Shown in pieces: positions 1 through 63,472 of a DNA stretch of 64,000 bases. Origin of the DNA: Eledone cirrhosa (lineage: Eukaryota); assembly GCA_964016885.1 (NCBI GenBank), contig OZ024742.1:73470001-73534000 (forward strand). Direction: 5' to 3'. The notes under the pieces were generated by a model. That model was not told the DNA's origin and did no database searches. It was given only the letters and a program-made list of their open reading frames with translations. Position 1 is the stretch's first letter. Each line of letters opens with the position of its first letter. The position numbers were made by a program, and so were the translations under genes.

Positions 1-66
1 CCCCGACGGCTGAGCTCAAGCCGTTTCGACGGCTAATTCGAAACGGCTTGAGCTCAGCCGTCGGGG
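1..66. repeat. Perfect 29-bp inverted repeat, each arm a hammerhead 3' half (GAAA-stem III-GUC)
   Basis: ccccgacggctgagctcaagccgtttcga / cggctaat / tcgaaacggcttgagctcagccgtcgggg; GAAACGGC...GCCGTC. Confidence 0.75.
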
Positions 67-422
67 TCCTACTCGCTCCTATTACCCACTCTACTACCTT
101 AAGTATTGAGTACTTTGGTGCGTTATGGTCCACCTGGTTCCTTACCACATTTCCTTCGTTATATTATATATATATATATATATATACACACACACACATA
201 TTTATCTGTATGTTTGTATACACAGACCACTTTAGTCTACTATAGATTACATTTTCATGTCTATGATTTAGTAATTTTATATATATATATATTTATCATA
301 ATCATCATTTAACACCCATCTTCCACGCTAGCATATATATATATGTGTATGTGTATATATACATAAATATTTAAATGTGTTTTTGAGAGTATATACATTA
401 AACCCCATATTTACTATTGCAG

Positions 423-495
423 GTTAGCGTTATATGTTTATGAATATTTACTACATGTTGGAGCTCAGAAAAGTGCACAGACGTTTTTATCAGAA
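423..495 (+). CDS. SSBP3: Ssdp/SSBP2-3-4 orthologue, coding exon (LisH motif): [24 protein letters not shown]
   Basis: Manual translation matches the SSBP2/3/Ssdp N-terminal LUFS/LisH sequence. Flanked by ...ttgcag acceptor and gtaagt donor; 73 bp. Invertebrates have a single orthologue, so the paralogue number is nominal. Confidence 0.95.
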
Positions 496-674
496 GTAAG
501 TATAGTTTATATTTATGGTACAATTCTTACATTTGGTTCTTTTTTACTCTTAGTATATCTACATGGCTTCTACCTTCTTTTCCTCCTAGTATATCTACAT
601 GGCTTCTATCTTCTTTTCCTCTTGACTTTTGTTTGGTCATCTAATCATTAGATATATTTTCTTTATTCCATGAT

Positions 675-58600: not shown

Positions 58601-61600
58601 ATATATACTACTATCTAGTAAATACACTGGATGGTGTCGTCCTATATTATATATATATACTATCTAGTAAATACACTGGATGATGTGGTCCTATATTATA
58701 TATATACTACTATCTAGTAAATACACTGGATGGTGTGGTCCTATATTATATATATACTACTATCTAGTAAATACACTGGATGGTGTGGTCCTATATTATA
58801 TATATATACTATCTAGTAAATACACTGGATGATGTGGTCCTATATTATATATATACTACTATCTAGTAAATACACTGGGTGATGTGGTCCTATATTATAT
58901 ATATACTACTATCTAGTAAATACACTGGATGGTGTGGTCCTATATTATATATATACTACTATATGGTAAATACACTGGATGGTGTGGTCCTATATTATAT
59001 ATATATACTACTATCTAGTAAATACACTGGATGGTGTGGTCCTATATTATATATATACTACTATCTGGTAAATACACTGGATGGTGTGGTCCTATATTAT
59101 ATATATACTACTATCTGGTAAATACACTGGATGGTGTGGTCCTATATTATATATATACTATCTAGTAAATACACTGGGTGATGTGGTCCTATATTATATA
59201 TATACTACTATCTAGTAAATACACTGGGTGGTGTGGTCCTATATTATATATATACTACTATCTGGTAAATACACTGGATGGTGTGGTCCTATATTATATA
59301 TATACTACTATCTGGTAAATACACTGGGTGATGTGGTCCTATATTATATATATACTACTATCTAGTAAATACACTGGATGGTGTGGTCCTATATTATATA
59401 TATACTACTATCTAGTAAATACACTGGGTGATGTGGTCCTATATTATATATATATACTACTATCTAGTAAATACACTGGATGATGTGGTTCTATATTATA
59501 TATATACTACTATCTAGTAAATACACTGGGTGGTGTGGTCCTATATTATATATATACTACTATCTAGTAAATACACTGGATGGTGTGGTCCTATATTATA
59601 TATATATACTATCTAGTAAATACACTGGATGATGTGGTCCTATATTATATATATACTACTATCTAGTAAATACACTGGATGGTGTGGTCCTATATTATAT
59701 ATATACTACTATCTAGTAAATACACTGGGTGGTGTGGTCCTATATTATATATATACTACTATCTAGTAAATACACTGGATGGTGTGGTCCTATATTATAT
59801 ATATATACTATCTAGTAAATACACTGGATGATGTGGTCCTATATTATATATATACTACTATCTAGTAAATACACTGGATGGTGTGGTCCTATATTATATA
59901 TATACTACTATCTAGTAAATACACTGGGTGGTGTGGTCCTATATTATATATACTACTATCTAGTAAATACACTGGATGGTGTGGTCCTATATTATATATA
60001 TATACTATCTAGTAAATACACTGGATGATGTGGTCCTATATTATATATATACTACTATCTAGTAAATACACTGGATGGTGTGGTCCTATATTATATATAT
60101 ACTACTATCTAGTAAATACACTGGATGATGTGGTCCTATATTATATATATATATACTATCTAGTAAATATACTGGATGGTGTGGCCCTATATTACATATA
60201 TATATACTATCTAGTAAATACACTGGATGATGTGGTCCTATATTATATATATACTACTATCTAGTAAATACACTGGATAATGTGGTCCTATATTATATAT
60301 ATATATATATACTATCTAGTAAATACACTGGATGGTGTGGTCCTATATTATATATATACTACTATCTAGTAAATACACTGGATGGTGTGGTCCTAAATTA
60401 TATATATACTACTATCTAGTAAATACACTGGATGGTGTGGTCCTATATTATATATATACTACTATATGGTAAATACACTGGATGGTGTGGTCCTATATTA
60501 TATATATACTACTATCTAGTAAATACACTGGGTGGTGTGGCCCTATATTATATATATATTACTATCTGGTAAATACACTGGATGGTGTGGTCCTATATTA
60601 TATATATACTACTATCTGGTAAATACACTGGATGGTGTGGTCCTATATTATATATATACTACTATCTAGTAAATACACTGGGTGGTGTGGTCCTATATTA
60701 TATATATATACTACTATATTGTAAATACACTGGATGGTGTGGTCCTATATTATATATATATACTATCTAGTAAATACACTGGGTGATGTGGCCCTATATT
60801 ATATATATACTACTATCTAGTAAATACACTGGATGATGTGGTCCTATATTATATATATACTACTATCTAGTAAATACACTGGGTGATGTGGTCCTATATT
60901 ATATATATACTACTATCTGGTAAATACACTGGATGATGTGGCCCTATATTATATATATACTACTATCTAGTAAATACACTGGATGGTGTGGTCCTATATT
61001 ATATATATACTACTATCTAGTAAATACACTGGATGATGTGGTCCTATATAATATATATACTACTATCTGGTAAATACACTGGGTGATGTGGTCCTATATT
61101 ATATATATACTACTATCTAGTAAATACACTGGGTGATGTGGTCCTATATTATATATATACTACTATCTGGTAAATACACTGGATGGTGTGGTCCTATATT
61201 ATATATATACTACTATCTAGTAAATACACTGGGTGATGTGGTCCTATATTATATATATACTACTATCTAGTAAATACACTGGATGGTGTGGTCCTATATT
61301 ATATATATACTACTATCTAGTAAATACACTGGATGGTGTGGTCCTATATTATATATATACTACTATCTAGTAAATACACTGGATGGTGTGGTTCTATATA
61401 ATATATATACTACTATATGGTAAATACACTGGATGGTGTGGTCCTATATTATATATATACTACTATCTAGTAAATACACTGGATGGTGTGGCCCTATATT
61501 ATATATATATACTATCTAGTAAATACACTGGATGGTGTGGCCCTATATTATATATATATACTATCTAGTAAATACACTGGATGATGTGGTCCTATATTAT

Positions 61601-63252
61601 ATATATACTACTATCTAGTAAATACACTGGATGATGTGGTCCTATATTATATATATATACTATCTAGTAAATACACTGGATGATGTGGTCCTATATTATA
61701 TATATACTACTATCTAGTAAATACACTGGATGGTGTGGTCCTATATTATATATATATACTATCTAGTAAATACACTGGATGATGTGGTCCTATATTATAT
61801 ATATATACTATCTAGTAAATACACTGGATGATGTGGTCCTATATAATATATATACTACTATCTGGTAAATACACTGGATGGTGTGGTCCTATATTATATA
61901 TATACTACTATCTAGTAAATACACTGGATGGTGTGGTCCTATATTATATATATATACTATCTAGTAAATACACTGGATGATGTGGTCCTATATTATATAT
62001 ATATACTACTATCTGGTAAATACACTGGATGGTGTGGTCCTATATTATATATATACTACTATCTGGTAAATACACTGGATGGTGTGGTCCTATATTATAT
62101 ATATATATATATATACTATCTAGTAAATACACTGGGTGATGTGGTCCTATATTATATATATATATATATATACTATCTGGTAAATACACTGGATGGTGTG
62201 GTCCTATATTATATATATACTACTATCTAGTAAATACACTGGGTGATGTGGTCCTATATTATATATATATACTACTATCTAGTAAATACACTGGATGGTG
62301 TGGTCCTATATTATATATATACTACTATCTAGTAAATACACTGGGTGATGTGGTCCTATATTATATATATATATATATATACTATCTGGTAAATACACTG
62401 GATGGTGTGGTCCTATATTATATATATACTACTATCTAGTAAATACACTGGGTGGTGTGGTCCTATATTATATATATATATATATATACTATCTAGTAAA
62501 TACACTGGGTGATGTGGTCCTATATTATACATATATACTACTATCTAGTAAATACACTGGATGGTGTGGTCCTATATTATATCTAGTAAATACACTGGGT
62601 GGTGTGGCCCCATATATATGAAAAAATATCGTTTTTACAAAAGAATATAAAAAAATTGGAAGGAGGTAGGTGGAGAAGTTTAAAACAGCTCAAAATACAG
62701 TAATTTATTATAATAAACAGGACAATATATATACTATTATCTGGTAAACACACTGGATAATGTGGTTCTATATTATATATATATATATATATATACCATC
62801 TGGTAAACACTGGATGATGTGGTCCTATATTATATATATATACTATCTGGTAAATAACTGGATGATGTGGTCCTATATTATATATATATATAGATATACT
62901 ATCTGGTAAACACTGGATAATTGTTTCTAATTTTGGCACAAGGCCAGCAAATACGCAGTTCATTACTGGTACTTTATTTTATCGACCTGGTAAACACTGG
63001 GTAATGTGGTCCTATATTATATTAGTATATATATATATATACTATCTGGTAAACATACTGGAAAATGTGGTTCTATATTATATATATATATGTACTATCT
63101 GGTAAACACACTGGATAATGTGGTTATATATATATATATATATATATATATATATATATATATATAAATATATATATAAAGTATTGAAGTTTCCGTTGAA
63201 AATTGAAAAAGTCATAGGAGTGAAGAGTGCTCTATGTAAGTACCAGAGCTAA

Positions 63253-63472
63253 ATTTAATGTATAATAAATAATACAATATAATTACCTCATTACCAGAGG
63301 TTTCCCGAATAAGGCGAATACGAAAAACATCCTCATTCGTTCATCGGACAAGGCAATTTCCTTGAAAATTGCCTTGTCCGATGAACGAATGATGACGTTT
63401 TTCGTATTCGTCTTATTCGGGAAACCTTTGGTAATGAGGTAATTATATTGTATTGTTTATTGTACATTAAAT
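63253..63472. ncRNA. ~107-bp inverted duplication holding two head-to-head hammerhead-like motifs (63281-63358 minus, 63367-63444 plus) with CCGAUGA core
   Basis: aattgccttgt CCGATGA a-cgaatga...ttattcg-g GAAA cc-ttt-gg TA^ atgaggtaatt. Confidence 0.6.

Follow-up and report, generated by a model that had tools for sequence, protein, structure and literature searches.

Endonuclease-bearing Penelope-like elements (PLEs) and metazoan retrozymes lacking long terminal repeats (non-LTR retrozymes) are the closest described relatives of six insertions in a stretch of 64,000 nucleotides (nt) of the 3.0-Gb Eledone cirrhosa genome (C3:73470001-73534000; GCA_964016885.1, OZ024742.1), referred to here as the window. 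PLEs, as described in the available parts of two papers (PMC3846280, PMC8557442), insert with an inverted 5'-truncated copy and a one-sided tail of 30-40 bp and show a preference for TA. In vitro, the Poseidon PLE protein of the green anole (PAc), a predicted dimer, cuts and extends both DNA strands of AT-rich targets, starting reverse transcription at two internal sites that flank the tail, with no need for hammerhead cleavage (PMC11167929). The main text of that study makes no statement of one start site per end and does not cover non-coding or circular templates. Metazoan non-LTR retrozymes, in the accessible text of PMC7229834 and of the preprint 10.64898/2026.07.22.740005, are non-coding tandem units of low GC content with one type I hammerhead each and target duplications of more than 4 bp, for which PLEs have been proposed as the mobilizing partner.

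The window insertions resemble PLEs, so far as those texts describe them, in their head-to-head arms, one-sided tail, target duplication of ~10 bp, (TA)n preference, partial tandems and a hammerhead in the pseudo-LTR (pLTR), and they share the properties listed above with PAc and, at two sites, with retrozymes. Three differences stand out. The tail, optional or often one-sided and 30-40 bp long in the published PLEs covered there, is here 57-100 nt long and one-sided in almost all insertions that could be scored. The retrozyme units are 466-545 nt long and form two opposed multi-copy arms with PLE-type ends, an arrangement absent from the published accounts in their available form. Finally, the link to PLEs is made here by insertion anatomy and not by pLTR sequence homology. 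The initial annotation of the window had proposed a recurring module of a hammerhead, an inverted duplication and a TA landing site within one host gene. This module is real, but it is the known layout of PLE insertions and not a new system; what is added is a one-of-each end rule that spans coding and non-coding templates. We found no paper stating this rule or describing two-armed retrozyme arrays, in a search that lay outside the older subscription-journal PLE literature, where reciprocal ends may be stated.

The two ends of the insertions

In coding and non-coding insertions alike, one arm starts at a position A and bears a tail of 57-100 nt, and the other starts at a position B and has no tail. 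The explanation we prefer, with a probability of roughly 75%, is two-ended priming, in which PLE reverse transcriptase (RT)-endonucleases use each 3' end of a single staggered cut in TA-rich DNA as a primer. TA tracts adjoin the outer ends of the insertions in all 12 cases at the six sites, against a background of 35% (the share of the window lying no more than 3 nt from a TA tract), in agreement with the proposed TA landing sites. Site 2 is an array of a retrozyme, family 1, in two arms:

29543-32238, minus strand: left arm of site 2, 466-bp units, six hammerheads, outer end at A (unit position 308)
32232-33671, plus strand: right arm of site 2, 469-472-bp units of subfamily A, three hammerheads, outer end at B (unit position 234)

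The left arm comprises 5.4 units of subfamily B followed by a near in-register switch to subfamily A, and the arms overlap by 7 nt at their junction. All nine predicted hammerheads of the array (six minus and three plus, head to head) are complete and of type I, with a compensatory U-A/A-U change in stem II between the subfamilies, and no frame of 80 aa or more lies inside the array. A GUU triplet is present in the young subfamily, where older ones have GUC.

The family 1 unit (GC 167/472) has 464 candidate loci in the genome, of which 24 were scored, with an identity of 99-100%. Taking the window together with 23 of these loci, 20 of 24 are two-armed; the outer end of one arm lies at a fixed unit position, 308 (A), and that of the other at a second, 234-238 (B). 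An exact-pattern search returned 933 exact copies of the hammerhead of one subfamily. Patterns joining the A or B end to TA matched 1,364 and 860 times, respectively, on the forward strand, compared with 1 and 0 for reversed controls. A position-ordered census of the first 76 Mb of C1 (69 A and 42 B ends among the matches listed) gave 29 outward pairs within 15 kb, comprising 27 A/B, one A/A and one B/B, an excess of A/B over independent end choice (p = 1.7e-7) in which 21 of the 27 A/B pairs were scored by end positions only, their sequence not being fetched. When the sequences of the other two pairs were fetched, the A/A pair proved to belong to two separate elements; the B/B pair is a genuine exception. 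Across 84 family 1 loci, a set that is biased because 60 of them were picked by having an A or B end, there were 46 distinct A/B insertions, one B/B and no A/A (46/47 of those two-armed with both ends canonical), alongside nine one-armed copies in which the other end is present only as a tiny inverted stub and 21 one-armed copies; one segmental duplicate and two spurious TA matches were dropped. Inner junctions vary and show little microhomology, with an overlap of mostly 0-7 nt. Target duplications are unreadable at the window sites themselves and were read in the 15 of 46 elements that lie outside pure TA: ten are 11-13 bp long, one is 16 bp, and four are 20-33 bp within TA runs.

A second retrozyme family, with a unit of ~498-545 bp that contains an internal TA tract and also occurs in arrays, is represented at site 5:

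39596-40240, unstranded: two-armed insertion of retrozyme family 2; the minus arm ends at B, and the plus arm carries the hammerhead (39868-39912) and a 57-nt tail (A)

In family 2, both ends could be scored in six distinct insertions, all of them A/B; a further two are complex, and the remaining copies extend off the sampled loci. That the inverted repeat of site 5 is a built-in hairpin of the unit was considered and dropped. Elsewhere, family 2 insertions lie in TA tracts directly at coding PLE ends (L072:2400-7000, L075:4300-5200), and PLE-type ends are commonly nested in each other's TA tracts.

Sites 2 and 5 combine tandem units, a type I hammerhead, a GC content below 50% and no coding frame, and family 1 adds target duplications above 4 bp (11-13 bp). 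From these sequence features we classify both as non-coding hammerhead retrozymes. Their unit lengths (466-472 and 498-544 nt) lie outside the 170-400 nt range given in the available text of PMC7229834 and inside the 51-972 bp of that of the preprint 10.64898/2026.07.22.740005.

Site 1 has the two arms and the tail but lacks the ribozyme:

1-158, unstranded: short, hairpin-rich two-armed insertion without a hammerhead core; the B arm begins ~15 nt before the window, and the A arm (34-160) has a 78-nt tail

A CUGANGA core within 130 nt upstream of GAAA was found in none of 31 family copies. Of 28 listed cases, 25 have an inverted B arm, and the junctions vary. The two arms commonly show a difference at a single position. 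Because the junction is not the same from copy to copy, we rejected the idea that this site is a frozen palindrome propagated as a whole.

Coding elements at sites 3, 4 and 6 and beyond the window

The remaining three sites derive from elements with reading frames:

37378-37632, unstranded: site 3, where a young coding Hydra-type PLE (3,958-bp unit) has left a two-armed end; the minus arm, with a complete hammerhead, ends at B, and the plus arm bears the tail (A) and is internally deleted
38517-38862, plus strand: site 4, 3' end of a coding Hydra-type PLE, with hammerhead (38653-38709) and a tail of ~100 nt; a short non-canonical fold-back forms the stub at 38517-38539
63180-63472, unstranded: site 6, a coding Hydra-type PLE end in two arms, each with a hammerhead (CCGAUGA core); the minus arm has a 73-78-nt tail (A), and the plus arm ends at B

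Frames of the site 3 family are 517-688 aa long, contain RT YRDD and YVG motifs and show a weak tblastn match to another PLE. The parent element has RWR (for RWK), DKT and CxCX5C motifs, a canonical hammerhead and (TA)n targets, as does the Hydra clade including Hydra-1_Obim in the accessible text of PMC8557442; its unit is longer than the "generally <3 kb" given there. We assign it to the Hydra type on the basis of these motifs. Its two-armed insertions, searched for without the tail, are A/B in 10 of 11 cases and B/B in one, and L307 and L309 contain a partial tandem. The parents of sites 4 and 6 have similar, broken frames. In these two families (30 loci each, picked with the tail in the query) inverted arms end at B in 11/14 and 7/10 cases, respectively, and at A in none. 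Inverted arms and tails thus occur in all three Hydra-type families. Most frames of these families gave no Pfam hit; one site 4 copy matched GIY-YIG (E = 0.006).

The absence of a PLE RT/GIY-YIG frame from the window, reported previously, was confirmed by tblastn, and the PLE link was found outside it, where the parents of sites 3, 4 and 6 have an RT/GIY-YIG frame upstream of the pLTR, as in endonuclease-bearing PLEs. Sites 3, 4 and 6 are accordingly read from sequence comparison as 5'-truncated 3' ends of coding PLEs and, because their parents carry these frames, can be ordinary cis products. The earlier proposal that several non-autonomous families are mobilized in trans by PLE machinery holds in its connection to PLEs, as coding PLEs share the two-end rule and TA targets. 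Its trans component fits only the tandem non-coding units of sites 2 and 5 and perhaps site 1.

A further family, represented by L170, is a very abundant and young coding PLE located outside the window, with many intact 775-aa frames. Its 4,679-bp unit (L170:1591-6269) has an additional upstream frame. Pfam identified GIY-YIG (E = 3.7e-6) and RVT_1 (E = 4.9e-6), and GLKF, DKG and CGRSNCGTC motifs are present, the last in agreement with a CX2-5CxxC linker, placing the family in the Neptune type (Neptune/Nematis) by motifs and domains. Its ends lie at unit positions 79 and 147, and 20 loci yielded 11 two-armed copies, of which 10 are A/B. The family also has a hammerhead-like motif with a CAGAAGA core and a degenerate stem II.

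Templates and competing explanations

We propose that a PLE enzyme would bind the structured tail region and start one cDNA on each side of it, so that both 3' ends of a staggered cut of ~12 nt would prime, one at A and one at B. The two cDNAs, usually copies of the same RNA molecule, would then be joined at their far ends. Sites 3, 4 and 6 would represent this reaction on coding PLE RNA, stopped early. The retrozymes at sites 2 and 5 would borrow the PLE enzyme in trans, and their multi-copy arms probably reflect repeated copying of one monomer, most simply a hammerhead-made RNA circle; between such a circle and an uncleaved multimer we lean modestly toward the circle. More tentative, and a little short of an even bet, is the extension to all endonuclease-bearing PLEs, in which two-site priming on a single RNA at both ends of a 12-nt break would be obligate and, on circles, two enzymes would chase each other, making a retrozyme array one rolling-circle event and not the product of satellite growth.

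The arms themselves bear on these steps. In 39 of 44 arrays with overlapping arms, the closest match of an arm is its own partner or a tie, and at L025, L026, L031 and L039 private substitutions are fixed across copies in both arms, which implies a one-monomer bottleneck at some stage. Retrozyme arms run through the hammerhead cleavage site in ~353 cases and end a few bases or less from it in 5, so the template is not the cleaved linear monomer; arm ends are likewise not enriched at this site (3/119). In 12/55 family 1 and 4/10 L170-family insertions (the latter at L167, L169, L176 and L181), the B arm extends past the upstream limit of the A arm but has no tail, indicating that neither arm was copied from the other. 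Within-array variants show no A-to-G excess (A>G 9, T>C 11, G>A 16, C>T 12).

Several observations weigh against two-ended priming on a single, possibly circular, RNA. Eight two-armed insertions among the 84 family 1 loci pair an A end with a non-canonical or gapped other end and are excluded from the A/B ratio, and L096, L311 and one L174 copy have B/B ends. Near-symmetric junctions are in excess in family 1 (8/55, 2.7 expected, p = 0.005) and reach ~6/11 in the Hydra-type family. The window array has arms of different subfamilies (15/454 positions differ) and is the only clear chimera among the 44 arrays, so that either more than one template may be used or the locus underwent later rearrangement. 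Periodic variants of 6 and 2 units (L024 and L029, respectively) suggest later local duplication, and uncleaved RNA is the dominant PLE substrate in vitro (PMC11167929). Retrozyme tails, compared by eye, are unlike the coding PLE tails seen, and neither they nor target-duplication length pointed to a partner PLE.

The near-symmetric junctions, which include those of most site 1 copies, are also what would be expected if one cDNA copied itself after folding back at a palindrome and an endonuclease trimmed one end, leaving a one-sided tail. Such self-priming is discussed in the available parts of PMC3846280 and PMC8557442, which favor it or endonuclease resolution, whereas the non-overlapping arms described above argue for two priming events. 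Two enzymes halting at the same RNA end would also yield symmetric junctions, and we regard fold-back as quite improbable. Priming at both ends with each DNA end using a different RNA, as an asymmetric dimer, would account for the subfamily B sequence over most of the A arm and subfamily A sequence on the B arm of the window array, and agrees with the predicted PAc dimer. The rarity of chimeras and the private variants common to both arms oppose it, as do A arms that stop near B more often than expected (8/61 against 3.2, p = 0.015, in a window picked post hoc), as if blocked by another primer on the same RNA. Matching arms would also be expected from transcripts of a single homogeneous donor locus, and two separate RNAs are unlikely rather than negligible.

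A comparable low likelihood attaches to arrays being satellites grown in place from a PLE end by unequal crossover, the local amplification favored and modeled in the available text of the preprint 10.64898/2026.07.22.740005, or else single copies of a long uncleaved transcript. The periodic variants of L029 and L024, the in vitro preference for uncleaved RNA and the existence of very long arrays are all in keeping with this. The main alternative to the circle, a linear uncleaved transcript from a donor that was homogeneous beforehand, keeps some probability. Growth in place is harder to reconcile with arrays that are 99-100% identical on many chromosomes and have two multi-copy arms, fixed ends and target duplications, or with locus-private variants fixed in both inverted arms. 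The window also contains an intact-looking RTE-type long interspersed nuclear element (LINE) with many copies, which might have moved the elements and generated the inversions by twin priming. [quoted passage not shown] The insertions here have two fixed internal start sites and no poly(A), and coding PLEs follow the identical rule, making this explanation very improbable. Least credible of all is that the palindromes are artefacts of long-read sequencing or assembly. One L174 copy does resemble a rearranged duplicate, and the L048 and L050 loci are duplicated on small contigs, but the arms are unequal, have two different fixed ends and are flanked by target duplications, and contigs of the public run X1 (maybe the source sample) contain loose ends in TA at both A and B, as well as 11 arm-to-arm joints.

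Hammerheads, host gene and other repeats

Of the six places where a hammerhead had been reported to combine with an inverted duplication, all contain the duplication and all except site 1 the hammerhead. At site 4 the two are separate, the palindrome (38517-38562) lying ~90 nt upstream of the hammerhead, which is outside it. At site 6 the hammerheads are present with an altered core (U4-to-C) in both arms, a change inherited and not due to local decay, as it is common to the family copies L192 and L072. The coordinates first given for the sites left out the one-sided tails. A descriptor search found 11 strict and 13 relaxed hammerheads, compared with means of 0.0 and 0.1 in 60 block-wise dinucleotide shuffles of the window, so the motifs exceed the level of shuffled DNA. 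Outside the site 2 array it recovered those at 39868, 44439 and 63285/63371 (both arms, CCGAUGA core); complete cores at 28178 (plus), 38660 (plus) and 37475 (minus) were missed by the descriptor and read by eye. Rfam model HH9 matched four array copies at E = 6e-6 with a score under the gathering threshold, while Rfam at a loose threshold and generic repeat finding were dominated by TA repeats (in Rfam, microRNA-model matches). Four palindromic stem IIIs, and three AATAAA motifs following dispersed hammerheads, are present as originally described. Two dispersed hammerheads lie outside the six sites:

28170-28240, plus strand: dispersed type I hammerhead with a short stem I and stem III ATGATCAT, then AATAAA, near the end of a repeated element
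44439-44540, plus strand: dispersed hammerhead with a long stem II and stem III ACAATTGT, then AATAAA

At sites 3 and 4, AATAAA lies well inside the element ends with no poly(A) tail after it, leaving a polyadenylation role without support. The repeated element ending in the 28178 hammerhead (26589-28283) has a partial tandem duplication and an inverted tail piece at its far left end and is probably another PLE-type insertion. Two decayed hammerhead-like cores occur at 42743 and 43316 (plus strand), one with GAAA changed to AAAA, and relatives of each are found elsewhere in the genome.

The placement within a single host gene was borne out by two exons in the window:

425-495, plus strand: exon of an Ssdp/SSBP2-4 homologue (LUFS domain), from motif scan and splice sites
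2660-2721, plus strand: exon of the same homologue, 20/20 identical to SSBP2 (E = 6.5e-11), with splice sites

The identity of the second exon comes from a match to a PDB sequence; Pfam did not recover the gene among 49 short frames. One more exon lies upstream of the window and one ~5 kb downstream. All six sites are intronic and end in TA tracts, and sites 2-6 fall within one 66-kb intron, since the next exon is ~5 kb past the window. Hammerheads at 32469-33447, 28178, 38660, 39875, 44446 and 63378 (plus strand) are on the host sense strand, and the Ssdp pre-mRNA would therefore contain them; we predict that the three of the site 2 array could release two monomers from it.

The window otherwise consists largely of TA microsatellite, LINE fragments and satellites. 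The RTE-type LINE at 12874-16227 (plus strand) has an intact-looking 1,117-aa frame with endonuclease, RT and PHD finger, and partial copies of it are numerous across the window. A 50-bp satellite with a short TA run occupies 50115-52376 (~45 copies) and 55653-62582 (~137 copies), interrupted by LINE fragments. A 580-bp non-TA island at 9336-9918, within a 5.4-kb TA tract, has copies elsewhere in the genome.

How PLEs form tandem and inverted structures and how retrozyme arrays enter a genome are open questions in the available text of PMC8557442, PMC7229834 and the 2026 preprint. With thousands of young copies, coding and non-coding side by side, both questions become a matter of counting in E. 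cirrhosa. For bench testing, the genome further supplies precise RNA start positions and an intact candidate enzyme, and a self-contained, two-ended integration of large RNA-templated inserts would be of interest to genome engineering.

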